Shown: positions 1-35,200, counted from the first letter of the stretch. The stretch: 64,000 bases of DNA from Kofleriaceae bacterium (GCA_015075455.1 JABTUH010000016.1:128001-192000), one strand, 5' to 3'. Numbers and translations are program-made. Notes: generated by a model not told the origin, from the letters alone.

Positions 1-517
1 CCGAAGTCGAGCAGCTTGACCCGCTCGCCGCCGGCGACCTCGACGTCGGGGACCAGGAAGACGTTGTCGGGAGGAGATCGCGGTGGACGATGCCGGTGGC
101 GTGGGCGGCCGCCAGCGCGTCGGCGATCTGACGACCCAGGTGGAGCGCGGTCGCCACGGGCAGGCGACCGACGCGGCGCAGGCGCGAGGCCAGCGGCTCG
201 CCGTCCATCAGCTCCATGACGATGTAGGCCCGACCGTCGTCCTCGCCAGCCGAAGTCGTAGATCTCGACGATGCTCGGGTGCTTGATCGCGCTCGCCGCC
301 CGGGCCCTCGTTGAAGAAGCGCTGCACGATCGGCTCGTTCTTCGACAGCTCGGCCAGCAGCACCTTGATCGCGGCGCGCCGCCCCAGCAGGGTGTGGGCG
401 GCGGCGCCGGACCGCGCCCATGCCGCGGCGGCCCAGCTCGCGCGGCCGCGATACGCCCCGGGCGTCGCCCGATCGCGATCCGACGATACAACGCCCAGCC
501 ATCGCGGGGCCCGCCAT
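1..517 (-). pseudogene. Hanks-type Ser/Thr protein kinase, N-terminal catalytic domain (partial; continues past window start). Reading across frames recovers AIKVL, HRDLLPDN and DFG motifs. At least 2 frameshifts.
   Basis: Reverse-strand translation gives [22 protein letters not shown]..., [76 protein letters not shown], split over 3 frames. The candidate ATG at 517 lies 10 bp downstream of the EEP gene stop. Confidence 0.6.
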
Positions 518-526
518 CGCCGGACT

Positions 527-1456
527 TCAGGGCGTCGGGATCGAGATCACCACGGGGAGGTGATCGGAGACGTTGGGGTCGTAGCGCGGGAGCTGGGCGT
601 CGAGGGGCGGGCTGACGGCGCGGGCGGCGCCCAGCTCGTCGGCGAGCCCGGCGCTGGTGACGACGTGATCGATCACCCGGCCGCCGGGGAGGAACGTGGC
701 CTCGCCGGCGGCGGCCGCCTCCGCGGTGCGGAAGCGGTAGCGCTCGGGGGCGGCGAGCATCGGCGCCAGCACCGCCATCCCGGCGGTGGTGGTCAGCACG
801 CTCGTTGAAGTCGCCGAGCACGATCACCTCGTCCTCGCCGCCGCCGTCGACCTGGGCGCGGACGTGGGCCTCGAGCTGGCGCATCGCCGCCGCCCGGCGC
901 TCGCCGTCGTCGCTGGCGGTCCCGGCCTTGAGGCGACGCCGATGGCGTCGAACGCGAGCGCGCCGGCGGTGACCCGGACTGCGGCGGGCGGGGGAAGGGC
1001 GTAGGTCTCGCCGACGAACAAGAGCTCGGGCTGGCCGAGGACGACCCGATCGGGGCGGTAGAGGACGCCGAGCTTCTGGTACTCGGTGGGCGGTAGCGGT
1101 GCGACGACAGCACGCCGTCGTGATCGGATTCCCGCCGCTCGACCAGCTCGTCCCAGGCGACGACCGAGGCCACCTCCTGGACCACCACGACGTCGAGGTC
1201 GAGGCTCGTGATGCGCCATCGGCGACCAGCCCGATCGTGCGCGACGTCCTGCGGGGAAGTTCTCCAGGTTCCAGCAGGCGACGTCGAGGGTGGTCGCGCT
1301 GCCACCGCCGGCACCGTCAGTCGGCGCGTGGCGCCGGCCAGCCGTCGAGCCCGGCGTCGACGCGGGGCGGCGTCGGTGCCGGATCGCAGGCGCCGGCCGT
1401 GACGGCGAGGCCGACGAGGACGAGGGCGCGACCGTCGCCGTCTCCCCGGGTCGCAC
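527..1456 (-). pseudogene. Endonuclease/exonuclease/phosphatase (EEP) family protein. Several frameshifts and an in-frame TGA at 824-826.
   Basis: Motifs LDVACWNLENF (frame A), LDLDVVVVQEV...WDELV (frame B) and a C-terminal SDHLPVVISI (ORF 527..799), all typical of the EEP fold. ORFs 824..1456 and 527..799 share a frame but are separated by a stop codon. Confidence 0.6.
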
Positions 1457-1599
1457 GGACCACGACCCGTGTCACCGCTCGCCGACCGGCCGACGCGGAG
1501 CCGGGCTCGACACGCGAGGCCCGAGGGCCCGAGACCTCGGCGACGTCGCCCCTGCCGCTGCTCGGCGCGCGGGGAGTCGGGGCCGAGCGCGGATCCGCT

Positions 1600-2035
1600 C
1601 CGAGCCGAGATCGGGCCGGCCCGGACCCGGATCCGAACCCCGACCCGTCCGATCCCTGCGCCGAACCCGCGAGTCGGATCCGAGCCCGAGTCCGGATCCG
1701 AACCCGAACCCGAACCCGAACCCGAGTCCGGATCCGAGCGCCGTCGATCCGAGTCGATCCGAGCCGGAGCTCGAGTCGCGATCCGGTGCCCGAGTCTGAG
1801 TCCGGATCCCGACCCCGAACCCGCGCGATATCCGAACCGCGAGCCCGACGTCCGACCGCGAGCCCGAGCCCGATCCGGATCCGCTCCGAAAGCGATCCGC
1901 GGGAGTCAGGATCCGAACCATGAGCGCCGAGTCGAGCCCTCGAGTCCAGCGGCCGGATCCGGATGGGCCGGCACTGCCGAGTCCGGATCGGCAGAGGCGG
2001 ATCCGAACCCGAGTCCGGATCCGGCACCCGCAGGT
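1600..2035. repeat. Hexanucleotide-periodic GC-rich low-complexity tract, (CCGARC / GNCCGA)n. It would encode PEPEPE / GSGLGFGFG-type peptides if translated.
   Basis: Direct reading: ccgaacccgaacccgaacccgaacccgagtccggatccgag... with period 6 over ~400 bp. A similar tract occurs at 18740-18905. Confidence 0.7.
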
Positions 2036-2149
2036 CGCCGTCCGAGCCCGCGACGCCACCGGCGGCAGCTCCCCGCGCGCGCACGATCGCCCGCGCCAGC
2101 CGCCGCCGTCCATCGCCGCCGACCGATCCTGGCGCTGCCGCGCGCCGTC

Positions 2150-3720
2150 GCCGCCGGGATAGAGCCCGGCCAGATCGGGGCGAAATAGCGTCGACGGATC
2201 GCGCGGCATCCGGACCCTGCCTCCGCCGCGACTCGACGCCGACCGGCACCCCTCCTCGGAGCCGAAGCCGCGGATGGTGCCCGCGAACGCGCGCAGCGCG
2301 ACGCGCAGCCGCGCGGCCAGGTCGAGGCCGCTGGGTGTCGAGGACCGCCGCGACGTCGCCGCCGGCCAGCCCGGCTGGTGGCCTCGAGCGGGGACCGTCG
2401 ACGAGGCGCCGCGCCGGCGACGAAGTCGGTGACCCGGGTGGCCGGCGCCGCCAGCGCGCCGCCGCCGGCGGCGGCCGCCGCCTCCTCGATCCGCGCGTGC
2501 TGCAGCGCGACCCAGGCCAGCGGCCCGGCGGCCCAGCGCCGCGCCAGGCGTCGGCGAGCGAGCGACTGCCCGACCACCAGGCCGGAGCCGAACGGCGAGT
2601 CGCGGCGCGACAGGCTCCAGCCGTTGACCACCACCCCTCGGGCTCGGTCGCCGCCGGCACGATCCACCCGCCCGGGCACATGCAGAACGAGAACACGCCG
2701 CGCCGTCCTCCGTCGCCGTCGCCTGGTGGACCAGCCTGCCGGGCCGCGGCCCGCAGCCGCGGGTGGCCGGCGCCGCGGCCGTACTGGGCCTGATCGATGA
2801 GCGGAGCGGGTGCTCGACCCGGACCCCGACCGCATCCGGCTTGGCCTCGAGCCCGACCCCGGCCGCCGCCAGCCAGCCCCAGACGTCGCGCGCCGGTGTC
2901 CGGTCGCCACGCACCACCGCTCGCGCCGCCAGCGTCCCGGCCGTCCGCCAGCCGGACACCGGCCACCACCGGGCGGCCGCCGCGGCTCGCCACCAGCAGG
3001 CCCTCGGCACGCGCCGGCAGCTCGAAGCCGACCTCGCACCCGGTCCTCGGCGCTCGCGCAGCGAGGTCGATCACCCGCGGCAGCTTGCCGGAGCCGATGT
3101 GAGGCCGGGCGTCGACCAGGATGTCGGCGGGCGCGCCGTGCACCACCAGCAGCAGCTGATCACGTCGCGGACGTCGCCGCGCTTGTGGGCCCGCGGTGTA
3201 GAGCTTGCCGCCGCTGGCCGTCCGCGCCGCGCTCGCCGAAACAGTAGTTGCTGTCGCGGTCGACGGTGCCGTGCTGGGTCAGGCCCGCAGAGATCGCGCC
3301 GCCGCGCCTGCACCAGCTTGCCGCGGTCGAGGACGATCGAGGCCACGCCGTGGCGCGCCAGCTCGTGGGCACAGAAACAGCCTGCCCGGCGACGGCGCCG
3401 ACGATGATCGATCGCCGCGCGAGCGCGACGTGTCCAGCGGGCCGGTCCCTGCGCGCGGCGGCGCGGCCATCGCCGGCGCGCGGACCGCGCGCTTCGAGGT
3501 GGAGCGACCCGGTGGCGCGGGCGTCGATCGCGTCGGCGCCGCATCCGACGGCGGCCGCGCGCGGCGCCGACCTCAGGACGCCTCGGCGTGGCCGAGCCAG
3601 CCCAGGTACGCGAGCGCTCGGAGCGCGCGGCGGTCGGCCAGGTGTGCGCCGGCCAGCGCCGCTCTCGCCCGCTCGATCCGGAGACCCAGCGCGAACGGGC
3701 TTCAACGCGCGGATGCGCCT
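2150..3720 (-). pseudogene. FAD-dependent dehydrogenase (COG2509-like, SFCMCPGG family). Many frameshifts.
   Basis: Reverse-strand fragments in 3 frames match the conserved order of this family: ...AGCFCAHELARHG..IVLDRGK (FAD-binding GxGxxG region), SNYCFGERGADG, LPRVIDLAARAPRTGCEVGFE, VWGWLAAAGVGLEAKPDAVGVRVEHP, FSFCMCPGGWIVPAATEPEG, VVNGWSLSRRDSPFGSGLVVG, RVTDFVAG. Confidence 0.55.
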
Positions 3721-4299
3721 CGAGCGCGCGCGCCGCCGGTAGTGCCACGCGTCCATGCCGACCGGGGCCGGCGCCGCGGTCGCCGGCACTCGCGCGCACT
3801 GGGTGGTCGATCTGCGACGGGCGCCGCCCATGCCGCGCGGCGCCGACGCGCCGAGCGTCGGACCGGCGGCGCGCGCCACGTCGCCAGGCGCGCCGCCGAC
3901 GCTCCGGCAAGCGCGGCGGCCCGGGCCTCGCGGCGTCGCAGCCGGGCGGCGATGGCCGCAGGCGGCGGAGAACCCGACGGCGCCGATGCGTACCTCGGGC
4001 ATCGACGGCAGAATGGGCCGACAGGCTCGCGCAGGCGCGGCAGCGATGTGGAGCGGGCGGGCGGCGACGACGCTTCAGCCAAGCGCCAGCGCTCGGAGTC
4101 CGACCGCCGTGATCGCTTCGCCGGCGACCGTCGCTCGGCTCGCGCGCCGAGCACGTGCGGGCGAATCGTGCAGGAGATGCGCAGACGCCGCGCGCCGGCC
4201 GATCGCTCAATGGCCGACCGCGACACGCCAGCCGCGCTCGCGCTCGCCGGCGCGCGCCGACCGGCGGATGGGCTCAGGCGTCGACCGGCGGCGATGACG

Positions 4300-4573
4300 C
4301 TCGCGTCGATCGACCGCGTGCGGAACGCGGTCGGTCGAAGGGCTCCTGCGAGCGGCCGACTGGCGTTCGATGGGCGGGAATCGGCGGCGCGTGGGTTCGC
4401 CGACTCGCTGCGCTCGCGCCGCAGCGCCGACCGGCGTCAGGCCGACCGGAGAGACGGGCTCGCCGACTCGTTTCCCGCGAGCGACCGCGGTCGGTGAAGG
4501 GCTCGGCCGCCCGGAGAGACTGGCTCGCCGCTCGTTTCTCGCGATCGCCGGCCGCGGTCGGCTGAAGGGTTCA
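4300..4573. repeat. Imperfect tandem/dispersed ~66-bp repeat units (CGCGGTCGGTSGAAGGGCTC ... GGAGAGACKGGCTCGCCGMCTCGTTTCYCGCGA) immediately 3' of the PhzF-family gene.
   Basis: Units at ~4441-4505 and 4506-4573 are near-identical. A degenerate copy lies at 4320-4440. Spacing is irregular, so this is not CRISPR-like. Confidence 0.55.
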
Positions 4574-5380
4574 GGCCAAGCGCAGCTCGCCGCGCGCGAC
4601 CAGCACGCCGTGGCCACCGAGGCGCACGCGGTCGCCGGCCACGGTGACCGCCAGCTCGCCGCCGCGGCGGCTGACCTGGCGCGCCGCCAGCGTGGTCCGC
4701 CCCAGCCGCGCCGCCCAGTACGGCCCGAGGGTGCAGTGGGCGGAGCCGGTGACCGGATCCTCGTCGACGCCGTGCTGGGGGGTGAAGTAGCGCGACACCA
4801 GGTCGACGTCGCCGTCGCGATCGCCGGCGCCGGGCGCGGTGACGATCAGGCCGGTCGGCAGCGCGCCGACCCGCCGCAGCTCGGGGGCGAGGGCGCGGAC
4901 GGCGGCGGCGTCGGCGACCACCGCCATCAGGCTTGCGCGACCGCCACAGCTCGACCACCGGCACGCCGATCGCCTCGGCCACCGCCGCCACCAGCGCCGG
5001 GTCGGCGACCGGCTCGGCGACCCGCGCCGGCAGATCGAGCACCAGCCGCTCGCCGTCGCGCTCGACCTCGAGCGGGCCGCTGCGGGTCGCGAAGCGGACG
5101 CGCGTCGTCCCGTGGCTCGACCTCGTCCATCCACACCAGGGCGCTGGCCAGGGCCGCGTGACCGCACAGGTCGACCTCGGTGGTGGGGGTGAGCCAGCGC
5201 AGGCGGAGGCCGTCGGCCTCGCGCATGACGAACGCGGTCTCCGACAGCGCCAGCTCGCCGGCGATCTGCTGCAGGAGCTCGTCGGCGCGGCCCGCGAGCG
5301 GGATGACCGCCGCCGGGTTGCCGGCGAACGATGCGGGTGGTGAAGGCGTCGACGACGTAGTACGGCAGCGTGCGGGGCAT
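4571..5380 (-). pseudogene. PhzF-family phenazine-biosynthesis-like isomerase. At least 3 frameshifts.
   Basis: MPRTLPYYVVDAFT (start 5380, frame 1). FAGNPAAVIPLAGRADELLQQIAGELALSETAFVMREADGLRLRWLTPTTEVDLCGHAALASALVWMDEV (frame 2). C-terminal LVSRYFTPQHGVDEDPVTGSAHCTLGPYWAARLG...ELAVTVAGDRVRLGGHGVLVARGELRL. Confidence 0.65.
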
Positions 5381-5489
5381 GGGCCCTCGAGGTGGGCGCG
5401 CGGGCGGAGCGCGGCGGCGGCGCCCCGCGCTCGCGGGGCCAGGCGCTGGCGCGGGCGGCGCGCTGGCCGCGGGCGAGCTGATCGTGGGC

Positions 5490-6907
5490 GAGGTGGGCGA
5501 GCAGGTCCGAGGGCGCCCGTCACCCGCGGCGTCAGCGGCGCGCCGCACGACAGGCGCACGCAGCTCGCGCCAGCGCTGCTGGCGGGCCGAGAAGATGGGG
5601 CCGGGGGCGATCGCGACGCCGAATTCGCCAGCGCCCGCTCCTGCAGGGTCAGGGCGTCGACCGCCGGCGGCAGCTCGACCCACAGGACGAAGCCGCCGCG
5701 CGGCGCGGACATACCCGCGTGCCCTCGGGGAAGCGGGCGAGGACCGCGTCGCGGTACGTGGCGACCTGGCCGGCGACGGCGTGGCGCAGCCGGCGGAGGT
5801 GGCGATCGTAGCCGCCCGAGGCCAGCATCTCGGCGACCGCCATGCACGGCAGGGTCGGGCATGCCAGCGACATGCGAGAACTTGAGGCGCTCGACGGCGT
5901 CCTGCCAGCGCCCGGCGGCGATCCAGCCCACGCGGTAGCCGGGCGCCAGGGTCTCATCACCGAGCCGCACAGGAGCACCCGCCCGTCGCGGTCGAAGGCC
6001 TTGAGCGGGCGCGGCCGGGTGCCGTCGAAGCACAGGTCGCCGTAGACGTCGTCCTCGATGATCGGCAGGTCGTGGCGCACCGCCAGATCGTAGCGCGCGG
6101 GCGCGGGCGTCGTCGGGCATGACCGAGCCCAGCGGGTTGGCGGCGGTCGGCATGCACACGATGGCGCGGACCGGCGTGGCGCGCAGGGTCGCCGCCAGGG
6201 CGTCGAGATCGAAGCCGGTGCGGGGGTGGGCCGGGACCTCGACGACCTTCATCCCCAGGCCCTCGATCCCCTGCAGGATGCCGAAGTAGGTCGGCGACTG
6301 ACCAGGATGGCGTCGCCCGGCGCGCCACCGCGCGCAGGCCGAGGGTGATGGCCTCGGTCGCGCCGATCGTGGTCACGAAGTCGTCCGTCGGTGAGCGGCT
6401 GCCCCATGCCACCGACCGCCGCGCCAGCGCCCGGCGCAGGGTCGGCAGGCCGGGCTCGCGCGTCGTCGCGCGCGCCCAGCGTCGAGACCTCACGCGCCAG
6501 CGCCGCCGCGATCCGGTTGAGCGCCGCCACCCGCAGGGTCGCCGGGTCGAGGTAGGCCGCGGCCAGCGGCACGACGCCGGATCGCGCAACGCGGCGATCA
6601 GCCGCCCGACGCCGTCGGACACCGCCGGCCGGGTCGCGGTCATCGCCGCCCGCGGCGGCCGCGGCGTCGCGAGCTCCGCCGCCTTGCGGCGGACGAAGAA
6701 CCCCGACTTCGGCCGGGCCTCGACCAGCCCGGCGCCCTCGAGCACGCCGTAGGCCTGGCCCACGGTCGCGACGCTGACGTCGCGATCCTCGGCCAGCCGC
6801 CGCACCGACGGCATGCGCTCGCCGGGCCTGAGCGCGCCGCGCTCGATCGCGTCGCCGAGCTCGGCGGCGAGCTGCTCGTAGAGAAAGTCGGTGGCGGCGC
6901 CGGGCAC
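5490..6907 (-). pseudogene. MocR-type regulator: GntR-family HTH fused to an aminotransferase (class I/II) domain. At least 3 frameshifts.
   Basis: N-terminal HTH MPSVRRLAEDRDVSVATVGQAYGVLEGAGLVEARPKSGFFV. Then LPLAAAYLDPATLRVAALNRIAAAL, DLPIIEDDVYGDLCFDG, RVLLCGS, LAPGYRVGWIAAGRW, GGFVLWVELP, in alternating frames. Divergent from the EamA gene. Confidence 0.65.
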
Positions 6908-7079
6908 GGCGGGACGAATTGTACCTGTCGCCTGGTGGCTCGACCATCACAGTCGTGTGGTCGGCGGGCGGTTCACTGTACTGGCTCATATTTCCACTCC
7001 TCTCTTCTGTGCTGGTCCGGGTCGTTCGCTCTGTCGCTGGGCGACGGGCGGCGGCGTGCCGTGCTTGCTCGCCGTGCCC

Positions 7080-7997
7080 CCCGCCGCCGCCGGTCCGCTG
7101 CCCGTCGAGACCTCACCCGTGCCCGCCCTCGGCGACCGTCGCCTGGCGCTGTTCGCCGCCCTGGCCGCGGTCTACGTGATCTGGGGCTCGACCTACCTGG
7201 TGATGCGGATCGCGGTCGAGACCCTGCCGCCGCTGCTCATGGGCGCGGTCCGGTTCTCGATCGCGGGCGCGATCCTCCTGGTGATCGCGGCGGCTCGCGG
7301 CGCCGCGTGGCCGACGGCGCGGCAGTGGCTGCTCGCGCTGCCGGTGGGCGCGCTCCTGTTCGTCGGCGGCAACGGCCTGGTGGCGATCGCCGAGACTGGA
7401 GGTCAGCTCGGGGGCGGCGGCGCTGGTGTGCGCGACGATGCCGCTGTGGATGGCGGTGTTCGCGGCGATCGCCGGCGAGCGCCCCACCGCCCGCGAGTGG
7501 CTGGGCGTCGCCGTCGGCATCGGCGGCGTCGCCGTGCTGGTGTCGGGCGCCGAGCTGTCGGCGGCGCCGGCGGCGGCGGCGGTCCGCCGCCGGGGCGCCG
7601 GTGGCGTGGGCGCTGGGCTCGCTGCTCGCCCGCCGCCTGCCGCTGGCCACCGGGCTGATGGCGGCCGCCAGCCAGCAGCTCGCCGGCGGCGTCGCCCTCG
7701 CCGCCGCGTCGGCCTGATCCGCGGCGAGCGGCTGCCCACGAGCTGGACCTTCGACGCGCTGTGGTCGGTGGCGTACCTCATCGTCCTCGGCTCGCTGGTG
7801 GCCTTCACCGCGTACTCGTGGTTGCTCTCGCAACGCGCGGCCGGCGGTGGCCACCAGCCGATCGTTCGTCAATCCGCCGCTGGCGGTGCTGCTGGGCGCG
7901 CTGCTCGGCGCCGAGCGCGGTCGGGGCCGCCACGCTGATCGCGACGCCGCTGATGGTGATCGCGGCGGTGGCGCTGGTGGTCAGCGGGAAGCGCTGA
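7080..7997 (+). pseudogene. EamA/DMT-family (drug/metabolite) transporter. At least 4 frameshifts.
   Basis: Hydrophobic segments: LALFAALAAVYVIWGSTYLVMRIAVETLPPLLMGAVRFSIAGAILLVIAAARG, PLWMAVFAAIAGERPTAREWLGVAVGIGGVAVLV, WTFDALWSVAYLIVLGSLVAFTAYSWLL, FVNPPLAVLLGALLGAER, ATLIATPLMVIAAVALVVSGKR. They are spread over 3 frames. The start is uncertain. Confidence 0.55.
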
Positions 7998-8059
7998 CGG
8001 GCGCGGGTCAGGCCGGCGGGCCGGGCGTCGCGGCGCGGGCGACCTCGGCGCGGGCGGCC

Positions 8060-8890
8060 TCGGCGCGGGCGAGGCCTCGCCGGCGAGGTGGTAGTTGTCG
8101 TTGCGGTCGGGGTGGAAGTCGCGGCGCAGGTACTCGCGGATGCCGCGCGCGAACACGCGCTGGAAGACGGGCCGCGGCGTGCGGACCCCGGCGGCGGCCG
8201 CGGCCTGGCGCATCGCGCGCAGCCGGCGCACCGCCGCGACGGGGCCGATGCCGTCCTGGCGCAGCAGCATGAGCGCGCGCCACCGCCCACCACGTCGACA
8301 GCATCACGGTCGCCACCGCCAGGCCGGCGACGCGCCGCGCGTACGACGGGTCGACCGCCTGCAGCACGTCGAACGCCACCGACTTGTGCTCGAGCTCCTC
8401 GGCGGCGTGCCACAGGGAGCAGCTCGCGCATCGCCGGGGGACGAGGTCGTACGGCATCTCGGTGGCCGCGCCCTCGGCCATGATCGCCGTGAAGTGCTCG
8501 GCGGCGGCGGTGGCGGCCAGGCGCAGCTCCGGCGACTGCAGCTTCTCGAGCCGCGACGTCACCCAGGCGTACGCCTTCAGGAAGCGATCGATCTCGAGCC
8601 GTGGGCGCGCGCTTGTGTCGAAGTAGTCCTCGTGGGCGCGGGCGTGGCGTCCTCCTGGTGGCCGAAGCCCTTGATGGCGGCGCGCAGCTCCGGGTCCTCG
8701 ATGCGATCGAGGAAGTGGTAGACCGAGCGCACGAAGAAACGCTCGCCGTGGGGGAACAGCAGGTTCACCCCGCAGGCGATCTGGGTGGGGACCGCGCAGG
8801 CCGCCGAACCAGTGGCGCGGCACCTGCTCGAAGCCGAGGGGTGGCGCTGCGCGGGGTGATGGCGGGCCGGGCCGCTGGGGTTGCCTCCAT
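8060..8890 (-). pseudogene. Metal-dependent hydrolase (PF10118-like). At least 2 frameshifts.
   Basis: NLLFPHGERFFVRSVYHFLDRIEDPELRAAIKGFGHQE. YFDTSARPRLEIDRFLKAYAWVTSRLEKL...WHAAEELEHKSVAFDVLQAVDPSYARRVAGLAVATVMLSTWW. C-terminal VFARGIREYLRRDFHPDRNDNYHLAG. Divergent from the TetR gene. Confidence 0.5.
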
Positions 8891-9017
8891 GACCTCCAGC
8901 CTGGATCTGTATTGCCCCACAAGTCAATCAGATCGGTCAATAGCCGAAAGTTCCTTCGATCGCGGACACTTCCCTGTTCCCTTGCATGGGGCGCGAGGAA
9001 CGCGGTATCGGTTCGGG
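8891..9017. promoter_or_regulatory. Divergent promoter/operator region between the hydrolase and the TetR regulator. Locally AT-richer, with GTCAAT direct repeats (caagtcaatcagatcggtcaatag).
   Basis: Lower-GC island in a 73% GC background. Classic TetR-divergent-target layout. No exact palindrome was found. Confidence 0.35.
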
Positions 9018-9723
9018 ATGGCCGTGATCCGCGGGCCTGTCGCCGCCGCCGCGCCGCCGCCAGCGGCGACGAGCCGGCGCGCCTGCGCCGCCCGCGCCGC
9101 CGGATCCGGCTCGAGAACGACCAGCGCAAGGCCCAGCTCCTCGCGCTGGGCCAGCAGGCGTTCTCCGAGCGCACCTACGACGAGGTGTCGATCGACGACA
9201 TCGCGCGCGCCGCCGGCATCTCCAAGGGCCTCCTCTATCACTACTTCCCGCCGACCAAGCGCGACCTCTACCTCGCCGGCCTGCGCGCCACCGCCGCCGA
9301 TCTGATCGAGCGCACGACCGCGGCGGCCTCCCCCGAGCTGCCGCCGCTCGATCGGATGCGGGCCGGCCTCGACGCCTACCTCGACCACGTCTCGCGCCAG
9401 GCCCGCCCGTTCGTCGCGCTGATGCGCGGCGGCATCGGCTCCGATCCGGAGGTCGTCGGGGTCATCGAGGGGGTGCGGGCGACGTACGTCGAGCACTTCC
9501 TCGACAACGCCGAGGGCACGCCGCTGGCCGGCCTGGCGCTGGCCAACCGGCCGCTGCTGCGGATCGCGGTGCGCGGGTGGATCGGCTTCGTCGAGGCCGC
9601 CAGCCTGGAATGGCTGTCGCGCAAGGACGTCGAGCGGACGACCTGGTGCGCGACCTCCTGGTCGACGCGCTGCTGGCGCCTCGCTGCGGCTGGGCGCGGC
9701 GGCTGGCCCCCGCGCCGAGCTGA
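9018..9723 (+). CDS. TetR/AcrR-family transcriptional regulator. Frameshift near the N-terminus and near the C-terminus.
   Basis: HTH RIRLENDQRKAQLLALGQQAFSERTYDEVSIDDIARAAGISKGLLYHYFPPTKRDLYLAGL. The C-terminus DDLVRDLLVDALLA..* is recovered in another frame, with TGA at 9721. Confidence 0.6.
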
Positions 9724-9739
9724 GCTGCGGCGCGGCGCG

Positions 9740-10290
9740 ACGGTCAACGGCGCTTCGTAGGTGAGGAGCAGGCCCGGCTCGCCGCGGTGGCGGGTCTCGA
9801 TGCACGAGATCCGGGTGAAGCCGGCGCGCTCGGCGACGCGGAGGGAGGCGGTGTTCTGGCCCTCCATCACCGCGATCACGCGGGCGAGCCGGAAGGGCCC
9901 AGGAGCCAGTGGCAGATGCCGTCGACGGCGGCGGTGGCCAGCCCCTGGCGCTGGTGGGCGGGCGATCGGCAGCCGATCTCGGCGGAGGCGGCGTCCACCA
10001 GGCGCACGCCGAGCATCCGACCAGCGCGCCGTCGGCGGCGCGCCTCGATCGCGAGCTGGAACCAGGGGGTCGGGCGCGTCGCACGGCTCGCGCGCGGTCA
10101 TCGCCTGCAGGTCGCGCTCGATCTCGCCCGGATCGACCACGCCCCAGCCCTGGTAGCGGGCCACCTCCGGCAGGCGGCGGCGACCGACCGCCGGGACCTC
10201 CGCCATCGCCAGCCGTCGCAGCCGCACCGGCCCGGCTGCCAGGGGTCGCTCCAGGTCATGGCTGATGGTCGGCCGTCGGGGGCGGACCGC
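9740..10290 (-). pseudogene. GNAT-family N-acetyltransferase (RimJ/RimL-like). At least 2 frameshifts.
   Basis: LRRLAMAEVPAV..LPEVARYQGWGVVDPGEIERDLQAM. Then ...GMLGVRLVDAASAEIGCRSPAHQRQGLATAAVDAICHWLLG and FRLARVIAVMEGQNTASLRVAERAGFTRISCIETRHRGEPGLLLTYEAP. Confidence 0.5.
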
Positions 10291-10422
10291 AACCCGGGGA
10301 CGCCGAGCGAGCGCCGCGCGAACCGCAACCCCGTGGCGGCCACCCGGGCGTGGCCCGGCAACGGACCGTTGCGCCGCCACGCCCTTCCCTGGCGACGACC
10401 GCGGACGCACCATCGCTCCATC

Positions 10423-11121
<699 letters not shown>

Positions 11122-11133: not shown

Positions 11134-11195
11134 GGACGGGACGGCACGGGACGGGACGGCACGGGGAGCGGACGTGCGCGGAGGCGCGGAGGCGC
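11122..11195. repeat. Short tandem repeats in the intergenic region: GACGGGACGGCACGG x2 and CGGAGGCGC x2.
   Basis: Read directly from the sequence. Confidence 0.5.
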
Positions 11196-11417
11196 GGGGC
11201 CGTGGCGGCCGGCATCGCCGGCGCGGGCGCGCGTCACCCCGGTCGGGCACAGATCGTCGCGCGCCGCGGCCCATCACCACGGACGCCGGTACGTCGCCGC
11301 TCGCCGCGACCTTCCCGCGCGGCCGCACGATCGGATCGATCGCGCGCGTCGCCCGATCTCCGGCGCCGAGTGCGCGCGCGTCCGGTCCAGATCGCGGCGC
11401 TCGTCGTACGCGGCGCC

Positions 11418-14146
11418 ATGCACCTCCCACGCTGCTCCTCCCTGGTCGCGGTGCTCGTCACCGCGCTCACGTTCTCCGCCTGCGCCGATCGGCCACCGGG
11501 CGCTCCGAGCCCGACGCCGACGCCGCTCGTCCGGCGCCGCGTCGCCGTCCGCCGCCGCGACCGCGACCGATCCTGCGCTCGCCGCGGTCGGCCACCACTT
11601 CGCCCCCGGCCAGGTCATCGCCAAGCTGACGCGCGCGATCGATCCGGCCGCGCCGCTCGACCTCGCCGGCCTCACGCAGCGGCCGCTGAAGCCGCTGCCG
11701 TCCGGCACCTGGCTCATGCAGCTCGATGACGGCCACCTCGCCCCGTCGCGCCGACGTGGCGGCCTCGAACGCTCGACGCCCTCGATCAGCTCCGCGCCGA
11801 TCCCGCCGTCGAGTACGCGCACGAGAACGCCGCCTTCGCGCTGTCGCTCGCCCCCAGCGATCGGCCGAGGCGCACCCGGTGAGCGGGCGCCAGGCCTGGG
11901 CGCTCCACCAGACCAACCTGTACGCGGCCTGGGACGTGACCCAGGGGTCGACCGGCGTGCGCATCGCGCTCATCGACTCCGGCCGGCGCGAGCACCCCGA
12001 CCTCGTCGGCCGCTGGGCCGCCGCCGCGACTTCATCTGGGACGACGCCGACCCCACCGACGATCCGGCCACCCACCCCGGAGGCTTCGACATCTCCTCGG
12101 CGTCCACGTCGCCGGGATCGCCGGCGCCCGCGCCAACAACGCCACCGGCGGCGCCGGCGTGCTGGAACTGTCCGCTCGTCCCGCTGCGCGTGACCCCGTC
12201 GTTCAGCACCGCGCTCAACCCGATCGGGATCGCCTACGTCGCCGAGCTGAGCTGGCCGTGGCCTGGGCCGCCGGGCCTGACGGCGGTCCCCGCCGGGCCG
12301 AGGTCATCAACTTCAGCCTCAACCACCAGACCCTCACCGAGCGCCACTGCCACCGTTCACTGTTCACCGGCTTCCGCCAGCAGGTCGAGCGCGCGATCGC
12401 GCGCGGCGTCGTGGTCGTGAGCTCGGCTGGCAACCTGCCCACGCAGAACGGCGTCACCGCGCCGCGGGTGCCGGCGACCTGCCCCGGCGTGATCGCGGTG
12501 ATCGCCAGCGCACGTCCGGCACGATCCCGGCGTACTGGCGCGCGCGCGCCGGCACTGACCTGGTGGCGCCCGGCGGCGGCCTCGACCTGAGAGATGCACT
12601 ACGGCGCGGGCGTGGGCTGCCCGACCCCGATCTGCGACGGCGATGGCACCCAGGGCGTGTTCGCGCCGTGGTCGTACCGAGGACGGCGGCCCGGACCTGC
12701 ACTGCTACCGTCACCTGTCGGGGACGTCGATGGCCGCGCCCCACGTCAGCGGCGTGGTGGCGCTGATGCGGTCGGTCAACGCGTCCCTGACCCCGGCCCA
12801 GATCGAGCAGTCTTCGCGGCCACCGCCCGCCTCGATCGGGTCACCTGTCCGGCTCCCGGACAGTGCGCCAGCCGGCATGATCGACGCCCACGCCGCGGTG
12901 CTGGCCGCGGCGACGGGCTCGGCCCCGATCTCGTGGTCACGCCGACCGCGCTCGCCTTCCCGCCGACGCGCCTGACCACGACCTCGGCGCAAGTCGCGCT
13001 CGCCGTGCGCAACGCCGCCGCCGGCACCCTCACCGCCCAGATCGGGGCCCCGCCCCAGCTCCTCCTGGCCTGCGCCGGCGGCCCCTGCTCGCCGCAGCTC
13101 GGCGGCGGCCTGCACCGTGTCGGCCGGCGGCGGCCAGCAGGTCGACCCTGCACGTGCGCTACGCCCCCACCGCCGCCGGCCCGTTCGCGGCCAACCTCAC
13201 CGTGCAGTCGAACGATCCCCGGCGAGCCGTCGGTGGTGGTCCGCGGTCACCGGCACCGGCACCGTCAGCGTGGCCAGCATCTCGCCCGACGTCATGCACT
13301 TCGGCTTCGTCCCGGTCGGCACGACGTCGCCGGCGCGACCGTGACCCTGGTCAACGCCGGCACCGCGCCGCTGACGCTCACCGCGCTGTCGCCCACCGCG
13401 CCACGTCGGGGACTACGTGATCACGCCGGTGACGCCGGTGCCGACCACGGTCGCGCCCGGCGGCTCGGCCACGGTCGCCGTCCGCTGCGCGCCGACCTCG
13501 GCTGGCCGCAAGACGATCATGCTGCGCTGGTCAACGACGCCAACGTCCCGGGCCAGCTGGTCGACATCCGCTGCGAGGCGGTCGCCCCCGAGGCCCGGCT
13601 GGTCGTCGCCGACCCCGGCCTTCGCACTTCGGCGGCGTCCCGGTCGGGACGGCCGCGAGCCGCGCCGTGTACGTCCTCAACGTCTCGCCGGGCACCACGA
13701 CGCTGGCGTTCACCCTGAGCCGACCGGCTGCCGCGCGGTTCCGCCTCACCTGCACCTCGGGCTGCGCGTGCACGACCACCGCGTGCGCACGGCACGGTCA
13801 CCAGCGGCCAGGGCGCGAGGCGCGCCTGACCCGAGGAGTACGCGCCGACCGCGATCACCAGCCACGCCGCGACCCTGGCCTTCACCTCGACCGCCCCGCC
13901 AACCTGCCCACCGCGTCGATCGCGACGACCGGCACCGGCGTCCCCGGGCGGCTCGAGGTGCTCGGTCCGACGAGCGGCGCCCATGAGCTCACCGACGGGG
14001 CGCTCACGGGATCCGTGATCGTCCGCAACCCGGGGCGCCCTGCCGGTCGCGCTCGGGGGCTGGACCGTCGCCGCCCGCGACGAAGGCGGACGACGTCTTC
14101 ACGGTGTCCGGTCCCAAGCTCGCCTCGCTGGCGCCGGGCGCGGTGA
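11418..14146 (+). pseudogene. Secreted S8 (subtilisin-like) serine peptidase lipoprotein with C-terminal choice-of-anchor-D-like beta-sandwich repeats. Many frameshifts.
   Basis: Lipobox MHLPRCSSLVAVLVTALTFSAC. Propeptide HFAPGQVIAKLTRAIDPAAPLDLAGL. Catalytic regions VRIALIDSG (Asp), HGTHVAGIAGARANNATGGAGV (His), VVVVSSAGN, and YRHLSGTSMAAPHVSGVVALMRSVNASLTPAQIEQ (Ser). Then repeated LTVQSNDP / VTLVNAGTAPLTLTAL modules. Fragments lie in all 3 frames. Confidence 0.65.
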
Positions 14147-14320
14147 CGAGCTGGAGCGTCACCTGCGCGCCGACCGCTCCGCACCGGCGCCGGAGGAGAC
14201 CGGGGCGGCTCCTCCTCGTGGTCGACGGCACCATAGTACAACCTCGTCGAGCTGGTCTGCCGGGTGGGCCCGTCCTGACGCGCCGCCGCGCCCCCGCCGC
14301 CCCGGACCGCCGCGCCGCCG

Positions 14321-16740
<2,420 letters not shown>

Positions 16741-17630
16741 CGTCCGGGTCCCCGCCCGGGACGCAGTCAGCGCTTGCCGAACATGCGGCTCGCCATGCGC
16801 CGACCCCCGGGGAAGCAAGTTCCGGGCAAGCCCTGGTGGCCCGGGCGGGTGATCCGCGCGGCTCCGGATCCGGAGCGGATCTGGTTGGAGACTGGCGTCG
16901 GTTTTGTCGGGTAGTTCTGCCATACCCACCGTGGCATCTGAGCCATATCGCCCGCTCGGCGTGGATCGGCTAACGCCGCGCGGCGGCGAGGAGATCCGCA
17001 CCGGACCCGCGTGAGGCTCCATACGGTCGGCAGGGACGGTATGGCGAGTGCGCTATCTGATGGCGCCGCCCGCGGTCACCCACGCACCTCGAGGTCTCGT
17101 CATCTCGTCGTCGACAACGCCCGGGCGCAGGCGCTGACCCGCGCGTGGGACCGCTACGACGATCCCTCGATCGCCGCGGTCGACGTCTACCGCTGGTCCC
17201 CACCACCGACGTCGATGCTGGTCGCCGTCCACCTCCACAGCGGGCGCTGACCGCGGGCGCTGGATCGGCCAGGTGGTGGCGAGCGGCGCTGGCGGTGATC
17301 GATCCCGCGCGCATGGGCGACGGCGATCGGCGCGCGTTCTTCGCGACCTACCTGCAGTCGTACGAGGTCGTCGCGCGCGGTCCCCGGCGTGTGGCGCGAG
17401 CGATGAGCGCGCTGCGGCCGACCGCACGGCGCGCGCCGCCCGCCAGGCTTCGTTACGCTGCTCGCGATCCGCGCGGCGGGGCCCCGCCGCCCGGTCGGCC
17501 GCGGGCCGCCGCCGGCGCGGCCGGCGACCGAGCGACCGCGCGCGCGCTGCCGATCCGGCCGGGCCACGCCGAGCCCGCGCGCCACCACCCTCGGCCTGGG
17601 CGCGATCCGCGAGCCGGCGGCGGCGATCGC

Positions 17631-18733
17631 ATGACGACGCCGGGCGGCCTGAGCGCGCGGCGGCGCGAGAGCTCGCGCGAGCAGACGACGAGGACGCGGC
17701 CCAGGCCCGGGAGCGGGCGCCCACGGTCGAGTACCGCGGCCGCGACACCGAGCCGCTCGCGCCGCCGCCGGCGACCGAGCCGACGGAGCCGGTCACCGTG
17801 CGCTTCCTGCGCGGCGGCTCGTGGGCGCCGGCGCGCCTGCGCTCGCTGTCGGCGCGCGGCGCCTACCTGGTCACCGGCGCGCCGCCGCGGCTCGGCGACG
17901 AGGTCCACATCGCCCTCGACCTCGCCGAGGTCTCGGCGGTCGTGAAGGGCACCGTCTACCACGTGACCACGGCCCGCGACGCCGCCGAGACCGGCTCGAG
18001 CGGCTTCGCGGTCCGCTTCGCCACCGAGCCCGGGCCCGCGCGCGATCGGCTCGTCGAGCTCCTGCAGCGCGCGCGCGGCGCGGGCATCGTGATCCGGCCG
18101 CCGCCGTCGCGGACGTCGGTGCGCTTCCCGGTGCGCTGCCCGGTGGCGCTGCGCGGCGGCGACGGCATCGAGGGCGACGTCCTCGACGTCTCGCTGGGCG
18201 GCCTGTTCATCAGCCCGCGCCGGCCGCTGCGCGATCCGGTGGTGACCGCGGTCGTGCCCATCGACGTCGGCGATCCGCCGATCGAGCTGCGGGCGCGGGT
18301 GGCGCGCGCGATCAGCTCGGCCGACGCGGTCAAGCGCGGCCTCACCGCCGGCTACGGCCTCGAGATCGTCGACATGAGCGAGGGCGACCGCGTGCGCTGG
18401 AGCCGCTTCCTGTCGCGGGTGGAGCGCCGCGCCGGCAAGTCGGTGCTGGTGGGGGCGGCGCCGCGCCGGCTCGAGGCCATCGCCCGCGCCCTCACCGACG
18501 CCGGCTACGCCGTGACCTCGAGCGCCGACGCCGGCGCCCTGGTCCGCCTCGCCGACGGCCCCACCCTCCCCGACGTCGCGGTCATCGACGAGAGCCTGCT
18601 CGACCAGGGGGTGAGCGCGGTCTGGCTCGAGCAGATGTTCACGCAGCGCCAGGTGCCGTGCATCACGGTGCGCGGCGACGCCGCCCGCGCCCGCATGGTC
18701 GTCGATCGGTTGCTGGCGGTCGCGGCGAGCTGA
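17631..18733 (+). CDS. PilZ-domain protein (two PilZ-like c-di-GMP-binding domains) with a C-terminal receiver-like (REC) domain. The start is uncertain, and a frameshift just after the ATG at 17631 is probable.
   Basis: VTVRFLRGGSWAPARLRSLSARGAYLVTG..VHIALDL and VRFPVRCPVALRGG..GDVLDVSLGGLFI (PilZ-type). C-terminal KSVLVGAAP..AGYAVTSSADAGALVRLA...PDVAVIDESLL is REC-like. Confidence 0.55.
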
Positions 18734-18739
18734 CGCGGA

Positions 18740-18905
18740 CTGTGGGCCACTGGCCGCGGGTGCGAGGCCGGGGCCGGGGCCGAGGCCGGGGCCGAGCCCG
18801 GGGCCGAGGCCGGATCCGAGCCCGAGCCCGGATCCGAGCCCGAGCCCGGATCCGAGGGGGCCGAGCCCGAGACCGAGCCCGAGGCCGGGTCCGAACCCGA
18901 GTCCG
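18740..18905. repeat. Hexanucleotide-periodic (GNCCGR)n tract, ~27 units (ggccggggccgaggccgg...gcccgagcccggatccgag).
   Basis: Direct reading. Same repeat family as 1600-2035. Lies between the PilZ gene stop and the next gene start. Confidence 0.7.
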
Positions 18906-19030
18906 AGGCCACGCTCACCAGGCTTTGCCACTCCCCGCCACCCGCGGCGGGCAACCGCGGCGGCTACGATGGGTCTCCTTCGCAGCCGACCTCCCTCCCC
19001 GGCTGCGCGCGCGTCGCGCGAGGTGATGGC

Positions 19031-22000
19031 ATGAACCGACGACTCCTCCTCGTCCTGGGGCTGGCCGCGCTCGCGGCCGCGCTCGCGATCTACGTCCTGC
19101 GGAGCGATCGCGGTCGCGGCGACCGCGCGGCCTCCACGACCGCGAGCGGCCCCGCCGCCGGCGCGGCGGCGGGGCGCGGCGGCGCCCGCGCCGGCACCGG
19201 CGTCGTCGATCCGCGCACGCAGCGGCCGGCGTCGATCGCGGGCACGATCCGCACCGACGGCGGCGGGCCGCTCGCCGGCGCGCGGGTGTGCACGTCCTGG
19301 TTCGCCGAGGGCGCCACCGACGACGACCGGCGCGAGCCCACCTGCACCAGCAGCGGCGGCGACGGCGCGTACCTCCTGCGCGCCGTCGTCCCCGGCACCC
19401 ACCGCGTCTTCGCCTTCGCCGACGGCCACCTGCCGGCGGCGTGGCGCGACCCCGATCCCGAGCGCGACCGGGCGTGGTTCGAGCTCGCCCCCGGCCAGGC
19501 GCGTACCGGCGTCGACCTCGCGCTGGCGCCGGGCGGCGCGGCGGTGAGCGGCGTGGTCGAGGACGTGAGCGGCGGGCCGGTGGCCGACGCCGTGGTGGAG
19601 ATCCGGGCCGACCGCGGGTGGTGGTCGCGGGGCGAGGCGCGGACGATCACCCGCAGCGACGAGCACGGGCGCTTCACGACCTGGACCCGCGCCGGGCAGA
19701 TCACGGTCTCGGCGGCGGCCGACGGCTACGCCCCGGGCAACGCCAGCGCGGTGGCGCCGTCGACCCAGATCGTCGTCCTGCTGACGCCGGAGTCGGTGCT
19801 GGCCGGGCGCGTGATCGAGGCCGGCAGCGGCGCCCCGGTGCCCGACGCCATCGTCAGCGTCGGCGACTGGCGCGCCGGCGACGAGAGCAGCGACGCCAGC
19901 ACCCGCACCGACGCCGACGGCCGCTTCCGCCTGACCCGCCTCAGCCCCGGCCGCTACAAGCCGGGCGCGACCGCGCGCGGCCGCTTCGGCGAGCCGGGCG
20001 AGAGCGTGCTGCTGGGGCTGGGGCAGACCATCGAGGACGTGGTGATCGAGGTCCACGCCGCCGCCGCGGTCCGCGGCCGGGTCGTGATCGAGGACGGCGC
20101 CGCCACCCGGCCGTGCGCCGACGCCTGGGTCAGCCTGCGCGACGCCACCGCCGACCGCTGGCAGGGCGACAGCGCCGACGACGACGGCCGGGTCGAGCTG
20201 ATCTCGGTGCTGCCCGGCCGCTACGAGGTGAGCATCCACTGCGAGGGCTACCTGGCGCGCGACCGCTACGACGCCGTGGTGGTGGCGTCCGCCGACCTCG
20301 ACGGCCTGGTGTGGACGGTCGGCCCCGGCGGTCGCATCCGCGGCACGGTCCGCACCTCCGGCGGCGAGCCGGTCGCCGACGCCAGCGTGTCGGCGCGGGT
20401 CGCGGACGGCGCCGCCCGCGCCCAGCGGAGCTGGGGACACGACACCAGCCGCGCCGACGGCACGTTCCGCATGAAGGGCCTCGCCGCCGGCGACTACGCC
20501 GTCGAGGTCCAGGCCAGCGGTCAGCGCGGGCCCGACGAGGCGCCGCGGGTGACGGTGCCGCCCGGCGGCGAGGGGACGCTCGACGTGGTCCTGCCCGCCG
20601 GCGGCACGATCGCCGGCGCCGTCGTCGACACCGACGGCAAGCCGGTGAGCGGCGCCCGGGTCCGGGTCGCCAACGACGGCTGGAGCTGGGGCGCCGGCGA
20701 GGGCCGCACCGACGACGACGGCCGCTTCGCGATCGAGGGCGTGCGCCCGGGCGAGCGCCGGGTGGTCGCCAGCCGCGGCTGGTCGCAGACGATGCGCCGG
20801 CCCGGCTCGAGCGACGACGACGTGCAGGGCGAGCGGGTGACGTGGCCGCCGGCGCCACCGCCACGGTGCGGCTGGTGGTCGAGGCCCGCTCCGGCGTCAT
20901 CCGCGGCGCGGTCACCGACGAGCGCGGCCAGCCGGTGGGCGACGCCTGGGTGATCGCGTCGCGGGTGTCGGAGGCCAGCGGTCGCCTCGCCAGCAGCGCC
21001 GCCCGCGACACGCGGTGGAGCTGGGGCCGCGACGACCGCCCGGTCATCACCGGCCCCGACGGCCGCTTCGCCGTGCGCGAGCTGGCGCCCGGCCGCTACG
21101 CCGTGCGCGCCTACCGCCGCGGCGGCGGCGAGGCGGTGGCCGAGCAGGTCGAGGTCGGCGCGACGGTGTCCCTGGTGATCCGCGCCACCGGCAGCCTCGC
21201 CGGCACCGTCGCCGTCGCCGGCGGCGGCGCGCCGCCCGACGAGCTGCACGTCGCGGTCAGCGACGAGCAGACCGGGTTCTCGCGACGCGAGCGCTTCTTC
21301 CGGACCGGCGGCGCGTTCGCGTGCGCGTCGACCTGCCGGCCGGCACCTTCGTCGTGAGCGCTTGACGCCGCCGGCGGGCGCGGCCCTGGCCGTCCGACGC
21401 TGCGCCACCGGCGAGCGCCAGACCGGGCTGACGCTGGTGCTCGAGCGCAAGGTCCGGGTGCGCGGGCGCATGGTCGAGCTCGGCACGACCACGCCGGTGG
21501 CCGGGCTGCAGGCGATCGTGCAGCCCGTCCGGGGAGTGAGCACGAGCACCTTCGTCATGAGCGAGAGCGGTGACCGCCAGCACATCAGCGGCGACGACGG
21601 CCGCTTCGAGCTCGCCGACGTCCCGACCGGCAAGAGCTGGCTCGTGGCGTGGCCGCTCGCCTGGGACAGCTCGCCGTGGGCCGGCAGCCGCACCTACGTC
21701 GAGCTCGACGCCGCGGCCGGCGCGGTGATCGACGTCGGCGACGTCGAGGTCCTGCGCCGGCGCAAGCGGACGAGCGAGCCCGACGGCGATCTGGGGTTCA
21801 CGCTGGTCCAGCAGCCGCCCGGTCAGGATCCACCGCTGACCCGGCTCGAGGTCGCGTTGGTGCGGCCGCAGGGTCCGGCGGCGCGCGCGGGGCTGGCGGT
21901 CGGCGACGTGATCGTGTCGGTCGACGGCCACGACGTGCGGGGCGCGCTCAGCAGCCGCGCCCGGCCGCTGTGGAACGTGCTCGAGGGCACGGAGGTGACG

Positions 22001-22054
22001 CTGGGCCTGGCCCGCGGCGCCTCGGTCCGGATCAAGGCCGGACCGCCCCTGTGA
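19031..22054 (+). pseudogene. Large membrane-anchored protein with multiple carboxypeptidase-regulatory-like (CarboxypepD_reg) beta-sandwich repeats and a C-terminal PDZ domain. 2 frameshifts (~20830 and ~21340).
   Basis: N-terminal transmembrane segment MNRRLLLVLGLAALAAALAIYVL. Repeated ..AGRV/GTV..DGRF..LPGRY.. modules. C-terminal GDLGFTLVQQP...ARAGLAVGDVIVSVDGHDVRG (PDZ). Three consecutive ORFs in different frames read through one another. Confidence 0.6.
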
Positions 22055-35198: not shown

Positions 35199-35200
35199 AG

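Follow-up and report, generated by a model that had tools for sequence, protein, structure and literature searches.

Reading frames and gene content of the window

The window analyzed here is a 64,000-nucleotide stretch of a Kofleriaceae contig (GCA_015075455.1; JABTUH010000016.1:128001-192000), and all positions are counted from its first nucleotide. From the kinase fragment at its left end through a PilZ gene (1-17,688), reading frames hop, so that each gene is spread over two or three of them (Table 1). A codon-usage HMM places 34 same-strand frame switches in this part (1.9 per kb) versus 27 in 17,689-64,000 (0.58 per kb), and the latter are mostly true gene-to-gene transitions. The original prediction had described one block of frameshifts from 1 to 22,054. 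Its genes really are scattered over frames, but the dense block ends sharply at 17,688, and the error map is a mosaic that spans the whole window rather than a single 22-kb block. The list of split genes given there is right, and those genes are intact in the syntenic loci of other assemblies. PilZ is a broken gene missing from that list.

Neighboring genes that had been called intact are intact, and ClpX, FumA, and the ABC ATPase are exact matches to other assemblies. Past 17.7 kb, the frameshifts are short putative error patches located at tandem repeats or where GC peaks locally. Each of the further frameshifted regions that had been proposed corresponds to such a patch: 23.7-24.8 kb to 24,033-24,165, 47.7-50.2 kb to 48,215-48,284 and 49,588-50,050, 50.9-52.8 kb to 51,528-51,534, and 57.7-59.7 kb to 58,417-58,492 and 59,555-59,633.

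TABLE 1 Genes, putative error patches, and other features of the window
Feature	Position	Strand	Net change	Remarks
Dense block, left part	1-4,353			Kinase, EEP, FAD oxidoreductase; 88.4-90.7% identity to L006, L007
Kinase fragment	1-476	-		7 frame changes vs L006
EEP	527-1470	-		18 frame changes vs L006
FAD oxidoreductase	2052-3581	-		64 frame changes vs L006
Dense block, main part	4,354-17,688			~2-8 differences per 100 bp, density increasing rightward
PhzF	4571-5380	-
MocR	5439-6919	-
EamA	7074-7997	+
Metal hydrolase	8008-8876	-
TetR	9018-9723	+
GNAT	9744-10259	-
Pirin	10423-11131	+
S8 peptidase	11418-14278	+
lon	14321-16784	-		Garbled; 810 aa when intact
PilZ	17072-18733	+		5' part in dense block, 3' part in error-free stretch
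Error-free stretch	17,689-21,321			PilZ 3' part, intergenic repeat, 640-aa CarboxypepD_reg ORF; 0 differences vs L004/L005/L016/L017
CarboxypepD_reg ORF, 640 aa	19031-20953			Inside error-free stretch
1-bp deletion	20,840	+		GTGA-CGTGG in window vs GTGACCGTGG in L006
Putative error patch	21,322-21,419		+4 bp	9 substitutions, 5 insertions, 1 deletion in 98 bp; GC 0.81
Putative error patch	24,033-24,165		+22 bp	7 substitutions, 15 insertions, 3 deletions in 133 bp; GC 0.81
Densest putative errors	30,069-33,804			~19-25 differences per 100 bp where reference exists; no consistent reading frame
Small putative error patch	42,161-42,241		0	3 substitutions, 2 insertions, 2 deletions; GC 0.90
Putative error patches	48,215-48,284 and 49,588-50,050			In TPR and zinc-ribbon genes
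Putative error patch	51,528-51,534		-1	Splits 612-aa HEAT-repeat gene
Putative error patches	58,417-58,492 and 59,555-59,633			GC 0.84-0.87; break 283-aa gene and 5' end of 830-aa GATase1-like gene
Putative error patch near window end	63,213-63,546		+9	10 substitutions, 7 insertions, 2 deletions vs L021; GC 0.85

Comparison with contigs of the same strain

Short-read MAG contigs of Kofleriaceae (GCA_023382815.1 and ENA ERZ27309507) served as same-strain references, with JAHDXB010000096.1 of GCA_023382815.1 (L017, L016) used for 4,354-17,688; positions 1-4,353 were compared with the other-strain loci L006 and L007. The references belong to two short-read assemblies (L004, L016, and L017 in one and L005 in the other), which count as independent assemblies but may not be independent samples, since a common site or even a common set of reads possibly lies behind them. 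A literature search by the MAG accessions found no publication. An exact 41-mer taken at an error-rich site of the window has no match in genome_contigs, a Lon-based scan gave nothing above 80% identity, in Kofleriaceae MAGs, and matches to exact proteins led to no contig of at least 64 kb with the window in it. Reference coverage is lacking for 31,175-33,635 and 48,790-49,527. Events were counted from DNA alignment because long gapped tblastn HSPs run through noise; roughly 800 differences were tabulated.

About 39.7 kb of the window is 100% identical to the same-strain short-read contigs. JAHDXB010000096.1 and k141_231681 (ERZ27309507) have 0 differences from it over 17,689-21,321 and 24,166-30,068 and one SNP over 21,420-24,032, and the sister contigs L001, L002, L021, and L022 have 0 differences in 33,805-42,160 and 42,242-48,214 and almost none in 50,051-63,212. 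On JAHDXB010000096.1, the PhzF, MocR, EamA, hydrolase, TetR, GNAT, pirin, S8, Lon, and PilZ genes are each one intact ORF. Across 4,354-17,688, this contig has 4 same-strand frame switches, all at gene boundaries, compared with 23 in the window. The kinase is also intact in the syntenic loci, where the intact lengths are 311 aa (EEP), 533 aa (FAD oxidoreductase), 270 aa (PhzF), 487/491 aa (MocR), 304/310 aa (EamA), 288 aa (metal hydrolase), 232 aa (TetR), 173 aa (GNAT), 234 aa (pirin), 941 aa (S8), 810 aa (Lon), and 547 aa (PilZ). Comparison with an orthologous locus, which had been proposed as a check, thus finds lon, S8, and their neighbors as single-frame ORFs in other assemblies. The window indels of 4,354-17,688 and of the patches are absent from L016, L017, L004, L005, L001, L002, L021, and L022.

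When the intact proteins are searched against the window with tblastn, the matches fall in several frames per gene. Lon is dispersed across all three minus-strand frames, and its intact orthologue aligns to the window across 99% of its own length. The intact 810-aa protein of the same strain has precomputed Pfam hits to LON_substr_bdg, AAA, Lon_lid, and Lon_C; judged from these domains and this alignment, the underlying gene is that for Lon protease. Versus L017, the window copy has 53 substitutions, 30 insertions, 11 deletions, and 37 frame changes, so that the original estimate of about 10 shifts falls well short of the 41 indels found. In 1-4,353, alignments of ~1.6-1.75 kb to L006 and L007 each contain 35-72 gap openings.

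The fault could in principle lie with the short-read references, the window being correct; toward their ends, MAG contigs built from short reads can contain mistakes. At 33,642-33,804 and 48,215-48,284, where there are contig ends or a tandem repeat, either version may be the right one. In the main block, however, the references yield complete ORFs that stay in one frame and have the expected Pfam domains, where the window yields none, and other assemblers applied to at least eight other samples gave matching gene lengths. This explanation is refuted for 4,354-17,688 and remains only for a few repeat-associated patches; as an account of the frameshifts overall, its probability is close to nil.

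Composition and distribution of the differences

Comparison of the window with JAHDXB010000096.1 across the 13.3 kb of 4,354-17,688 gives 230 substitutions and 174 in-gene indels; the length of 163 of these indels is not divisible by 3. Of the events, 54% are substitutions, 31% insertions, and 14% deletions. The breaks had been described as single-base indels with no accumulated substitutions, of a long-read or homopolymer type. The comparison corrects this description: substitutions outnumber in-gene indels, insertions are 1-6 bp and deletions 1-4 bp long, and 70% of the 1-bp insertions fall at run length 1, compared with a per-base background of 58%. For 1-bp deletions, a homopolymer link was likewise not found, with only 17 of 38 adjoining the same base. 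Homopolymer-type indel error, as from Nanopore R9, 454, or Ion Torrent, was rejected as the source, the indels not being concentrated in homopolymer runs. It had also been argued that the peptide sequences would have suffered in real decay; the premise behind this was false, as they are in fact degraded, and to conclude from a recognizable peptide that substitutions are absent is an unsafe inference when made from reading alone.

The window substitutions are blind to codon position (57/81/47 versus L017), whereas those between real strains and L017 are concentrated at third positions (34/19/105 for L006, 26/13/87 for L008, and 26/13/86 for L009), a bias also present in L007. The real strains differ by ~2%, and in-gene indels are absent in three of the four (0 in L006, L008, and L009). 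The transition/transversion ratio was rejected as a discriminator, since the window value of 0.68 lies within the real-strain range of 0.57-0.69 in this 75%-GC genome. Among 215 informative window-specific substitution alleles, 209 are private and seen in no other strain. These patterns bear on whether the assembler averaged reads of co-occurring Kofleriaceae strains into a chimera whose consensus has spurious indels; the public data do offer material for this, in the form of at least two strain groups ~2% apart (L006-L015 versus L016/L017). However, only 3 of the 215 alleles match another sampled strain, and strain mixing could not create 174 in-gene indels because such indels do not separate real strains. 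We consider such a collapse of strains very unlikely.

The right border of the dense block is abrupt, with 41 differences in 17,000-17,499, 29 in 17,500-17,688, and then 0 across 3,633 bp. The densest stretch, 30,069-33,804, was omitted from the original prediction. It is called non-coding by the codon HMM, whereas the homologous part of L004 is coding-like, and its identity to the tails of L004/L005 and L001/L002 is 78-84%; the ends of these contigs, 31,174 and 33,636, coincide with a repeat. The worst stretches overall coincide with short-read contig ends (4,296; 31,174 and 33,636; and 48,207-49,568, where contigs end at 48,207, 48,789, 49,528, and 49,568).

Among the short patches, that at 24,033-24,165 disrupts a 345-aa gene, and that at 42,161-42,241 lies at the 3' end of an ApbA-like gene. 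Several overlap tandem repeats: 48,215-48,284 (net -30 bp) overlaps a 15-bp repeat at 48,157-48,238, 58,417-58,492 an 18-bp repeat at 58,440-58,496, and 63,213-63,546 overlaps a 54-bp repeat. Mean local GC in the small patches is 0.824, compared with 0.747 +/- 0.016 at random clean sites, and 0 of 10,000 resamplings reached the value of the patches. GC was rejected as the cause of the 4.35-17.7 kb block, since its GC is ordinary (0.74-0.78); the lack of correction there is therefore not accounted for by GC-dependent dropout of short reads.

Origin of the frameshifts and use of the sequence

One frameshift stands apart from all the others. The deletion at 20,840 divides a 1007-aa CarboxypepD_reg/PDZ gene into the 640-aa ORF and an ORF of 371-402 aa, and it occurs in the window as well as in the two short-read assemblies (L004/L016/L017 and L005); the other strain, L006, is without it and has one 1007-aa ORF. 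A split of this gene had been predicted, and the gene is broken, but by only two breaks, one of which is this reproduced deletion. The second break of the PDZ-containing ORF is the patch at 21,322-21,419, which has identical sequence on its flanks. As the sole reproducible frameshift found, the deletion at 20,840 is the only candidate for a biological event, and its distribution among assemblies suggests that it is probably a real, strain-specific frameshift.

The genes are truly unreadable in the window sequence, and because the 20,840 frameshift is reproducible, real frameshifts do occur in this lineage. Both points would suit genuine pseudogenization or relaxed selection across an ~18-kb block including lon, or a localized mutator or hypermutation event. 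However, every gene is intact on same-strain contigs that are otherwise identical to the window, and apart from the 20,840 deletion nothing is reproduced: the frameshifts of 4,354-17,688 recur for no gene, and the 209 private alleles point the same way. Furthermore, neutral-looking change of ~3-4% abuts 0% over 3.6 kb (39.7 kb in total) at a knife-edge border, and we know of no decay process that sets such change beside none at all. The same noise also recurs throughout the window in short patches placed at GC peaks and repeats, which indicates that the pattern tracks sequencing difficulty rather than gene function. Decay or hypermutation of the block thus appears extremely unlikely. The same holds for the particular version in which the window would be accurate for a real subpopulation whose ~18-kb block was very recently hypermutated within sharp bounds, its neighbors untouched; it is just as improbable that such an event would have given the ~2-10% random substitutions and short indels.

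Pseudogene decay, as in recently host-restricted bacteria, is reproducible between isolates and scattered genome-wide, and the flanking sequence diverges too. The window resembles bacterial pseudogene blocks in having frameshifts in many neighboring genes, but its changes occur in one assembly only and break off abruptly at 17,688. Programmed ribosomal frameshifting (prfB, dnaX) also shifts the reading frame within a gene, using one conserved slippery site per gene that is common to orthologues. In the window, random sites number in the dozens per gene, and none is found in orthologues; programmed frameshifting was rejected, since the shift sites are not conserved and the orthologues are single-frame ORFs.

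The frameshifts are most readily read as base-calling or consensus errors of this assembly rather than mutations of the organism, with a probability of roughly 0.93 judged from comparison of the window with other assemblies. The same-strain short-read assemblies match the window elsewhere and carry the genes intact, which argues for a data-quality artefact. Uncorrected assembly errors with regional differences in quality had been preferred to real pseudogenes from the outset, and that preference is borne out by the intact same-strain contigs, the private substitutions with their blindness to codon position, and the sudden fall from ~4% to 0%. The error profile fits no sequencing platform cleanly, which counts against the error reading.

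The contig may therefore be viewed, under assembly error, as a mosaic in which ~39.7 kb would have short-read accuracy and the remainder would be uncorrected noise: ~10% versus other-strain loci in 1-4.3 kb, ~2-8% in 4.35-17.7 kb, ~19-25% in 30.07-33.8 kb, and ~10 short patches of ~7-460 bp. In the noise, substitutions and short insertions, with deletions less common, would be mixed at random and throw genes between frames. Single-molecule long-read sequence may have bridged or scaffolded the contig and been corrected with short reads only in part, an origin that would imply hybrid assembly, gap filling, or incomplete polishing. Unlike a uniformly unpolished consensus, the contig switches sharply from perfect to very noisy sequence and back, which points to patchy correction or gap filling.

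Errors in long-read assemblies and their effect on protein prediction were reportedly the subject of a 2019 note by Watson and Warr. Long-read errors can introduce frameshifts and premature stops that pseudogenize genes (PMC12007338), and removal of indels has required short-read polishing (PMC9262707). The window resembles the long-read and hybrid assembly indel errors of these studies (Kastor, PMC12007338; Nanopore R10.4, PMC9262707) in its split frames with peptides recoverable by frame-hopping, in the intact orthologues held by accurate assemblies of the same organism, in its regional error density, and in its fragmented gene calls. It lacks the homopolymer-deletion signature of Nanopore, 454, or Ion Torrent data, with insertions outnumbering deletions ~2:1 and substitutions commonest.

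Gene calls, pseudogene counts, completeness estimates, and evolutionary inference made from this contig will be wrong for 1-17.7 kb and 30.07-33.8 kb as well as for the ~10 small patches. The class of artefact is already well known, long-read errors being a recognized cause of fragmented genes (PMC12007338, PMC9262707). Overall, the broken genes are an ordinary data-quality artefact and not a biological feature, and they matter only for practical use of the sequence: nearly all of the affected genes are available error-free in the public same-strain short-read MAGs (GCA_023382815.1 and ERZ27309507), from which the contig could be repaired.

Reading frames and related sequences

At 75% G+C the window has long open reading frames (ORFs) in all six frames, and a list of ORFs is therefore uninformative on its own. 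A codon-usage HMM trained on the long clean genes of the window switches frame every few hundred bases over the first 17.6 kb and follows long single-frame stretches beyond, with 34 same-strand switches in 1 to 17,688 versus 27 in the remaining 46.3 kb. Translation along the HMM path yields recognizable pieces of broken genes for a kinase, EEP, an FAD oxidoreductase, PhzF, MocR, EamA, a metal hydrolase, TetR, GNAT, pirin, an S8 peptidase, Lon, and PilZ, and whole genes for tig, clpP, clpX, dapL, fumA, and others. The original prediction that the first part has its genes spread over several frames while those five are intact is thus borne out; the frameshifts are present in the sequence, but their extent, their counts, and the claim that they come without substitutions were wrong.

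Exact-sequence look-ups with the window's ClpX, FumA, 640-aa CarboxypepD_reg ORF, and ABC ATPase matched short-read metagenome contigs (GCA_023382815.1, ENA ERZ27309507 [MEGAHIT], and GCA_013328875.1). A search with the pirin peptide returned a 95%-identical protein, the cluster of which led to the same-strain pirin, and look-ups from both pirins recovered the remainder of contig JAHDXB010000096.1 (L017, equivalent to window 4,354 to 21,221) and syntenic loci that represent other strains, drawn from about ten additional samples (L006 to L015). The relatives that bear names are Kofleriaceae (Myxococcota) MAGs. In L017 and L006 to L015, the genes of the noisy block are single intact ORFs, with Lon of 810 aa, S8 of 941 to 943 aa, and PilZ of 547 aa.

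The intact same-strain pirin is MBE7449829.1/MCL4227660.1 (Kofleriaceae bacterium; cluster of P0001/P0121), and the longest contig listed for its cluster measures 948,618 bp; a far more contiguous assembly of the organism may exist. In six or more other samples (L008, L009, L010, L012, L013, and L014), short-read contigs stop at nearly one place inside lon (window about 15300 to 15600), which suggests a conserved or repeated segment that tangles assembly graphs.

Distribution and character of the differences

Comparison with the contigs of GCA_023382815.1 and ERZ27309507 gives about 39.7 kb of base-for-base identity in total, and these contigs and the window are therefore of one strain. Against the same strain, 4,354 to 17,688 carries 230 substitutions as well as 174 in-gene indels, at a density of 7 to 41 differences per 500 bp. 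The border is abrupt: 17,000 to 17,499 holds 41 differences and the final 189 bp another 29, after which the next 3,633 bp have none. Within 8,938 to 17,688 there are 19.9 substitutions, 11.5 insertions (1 to 6 bp), and 5.3 deletions (1 to 4 bp) per kb. The homopolymer signature originally proposed was not found, as 70% of the 1-bp insertions lack an adjoining identical base, where the per-base background is 58%.

Errors form a mosaic across the entire window, and each of the further frameshifted genes in the original prediction is explained by a short patch.

Stretches of the window and damage per gene; gene counts are for the window versus the same-strain reference
Feature	Window coordinates	Substitutions / indels / frame changes	Remark
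Long noisy stretch	1-17,688		
Long noisy stretch	30,069-33,804		about 19-25 differences per 100 bp; no reading frame; not flagged in the original prediction
Short patch	21,322-21,419		
Short patch	24,033-24,165		
Short patch	42,161-42,241		
Short patch	48,215-48,284		
Short patch	49,588-50,050		
Short patch	51,528-51,534		
Short patch	58,417-58,492		
Short patch	59,555-59,633		
Short patch	63,213-63,546		
Identical stretch	17,689-21,321		
Identical stretch	21,420-24,032		one SNP
Identical stretch	24,166-30,068		
Identical stretch	33,805-42,160		
Identical stretch	42,242-48,214		
Identical stretch	50,051-63,212		almost all
Lon		53 / 41 / 37	
S8		49 / 43 / 42	
PilZ		28 / 37 / 34	
MocR		18 / 13 / 13	
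Metal hydrolase		10 / 10 / 10	
GNAT		8 / 10 / 10	
EamA		7 / 6 / 5	
PhzF		7 / 6 / 5	
TetR		2 / 5 / 4	
Pirin		3 / 3 / 3	

Left of 4,354 the window is only 88 to 91% identical to the other-strain loci L006 and L007, against which the kinase fragment, EEP, and FAD genes show 7, 18, and 64 frame changes. No reading frame runs consistently through the second long noisy stretch (3.7 kb, about 0.80 GC). Here both short-read assemblies are interrupted, at 31,174 and 33,636, near short repeats (31,140 to 31,400), and no reference sequence for its middle 2.4 kb was found in the assemblies searched.

The short patches lie in local GC peaks, with a mean of 0.824 that was reached in 0 of 10,000 resamplings, versus 0.747 +/- 0.016 at random clean sites. 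Tandem repeats overlap several of them, and the worst stretches lie where short-read contigs end. On the basis of these features and the mosaic map, we infer that noisy single-molecule reads underlie the contig, only part of which received short-read correction; this would point to hybrid assembly, gap filling, or polishing left incomplete. GC content does not account for the uncorrected state of the 13-kb block at 4.35 to 17.7 kb, where it is ordinary. Long-read errors introduce frameshifts and premature stops, the removal of which needs short-read polishing (PMC12007338, PMC9262707). The frameshifts of the window are an instance of this documented class, although their non-homopolymer profile is atypical and the mosaic is unusually sharp.

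Error versus mutation

Window-specific substitutions fall at codon positions 1/2/3 in the numbers 57/81/47, versus 34/19/105, 26/13/87, and 26/13/86 for the divergence of the real strains L006, L008, and L009 from L017. Of the 174 in-gene indels, 163 have a length that is not divisible by three; in-gene indels are absent from L006, L008, and L009, and the nine in L007 are confined to a more divergent segment of S8. A collapsed consensus of several strains is ruled out as the source of the window's alleles, because 209 of the 215 informative ones occur in no other strain sampled. The Ts/Tv ratio does not discriminate between noise and real divergence. The tests of codon position, indels, and allele sharing, along with the identical flanks and the sudden end of the block at 17,688, leave very little room for real decay or a mutator event. 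The same comparison of assemblies supports the interpretation originally proposed, and the frameshifts are very probably (roughly 0.93) an assembly artefact rather than a feature of the biology. Neither programmed frameshifting nor pseudogene decay stood up to its defining test.

Tandem repeats and a reproducible frameshift

GC-rich intergenic tandem repeats at 1686 to 1884, 18763 to 18910, and 39590 to 39641 have units of 6, 12, 18, and 25 bp (CCGAGC / GGCCGG / CCGAGTCCGGAT) that are mutually similar and recur at separate sites, and positions 2009 to 2155 of L006 match the first two at about 76% each. They may represent a dispersed intergenic repeat family. The copy number of an 11-bp array between tig and clpP varies between MAGs (L003). 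At 48157 to 48238, a 15-bp repeat of about 5.5 copies encodes GGATG repeats inside a TPR protein; here the same-strain contig L001 has 30 bp (two units) more than the window, and contig L002 ends. This difference could be real copy-number variation, not error.

The CarboxypepD_reg/PDZ gene, a single 1007-aa ORF in strain L006, is broken twice in the window. One break, in the patch at 21,322 to 21,419, is found in the window only. The other, a 1-bp deletion at 20,840 (GTGA-CGTGG versus GTGACCGTGG in L006) that leaves a 640-aa ORF and one of 371 to 402 aa, is common to the window and both short-read assemblies of its strain and absent from L006. This deletion is probably a real strain-specific frameshift mutation, the one reproducible frameshift.
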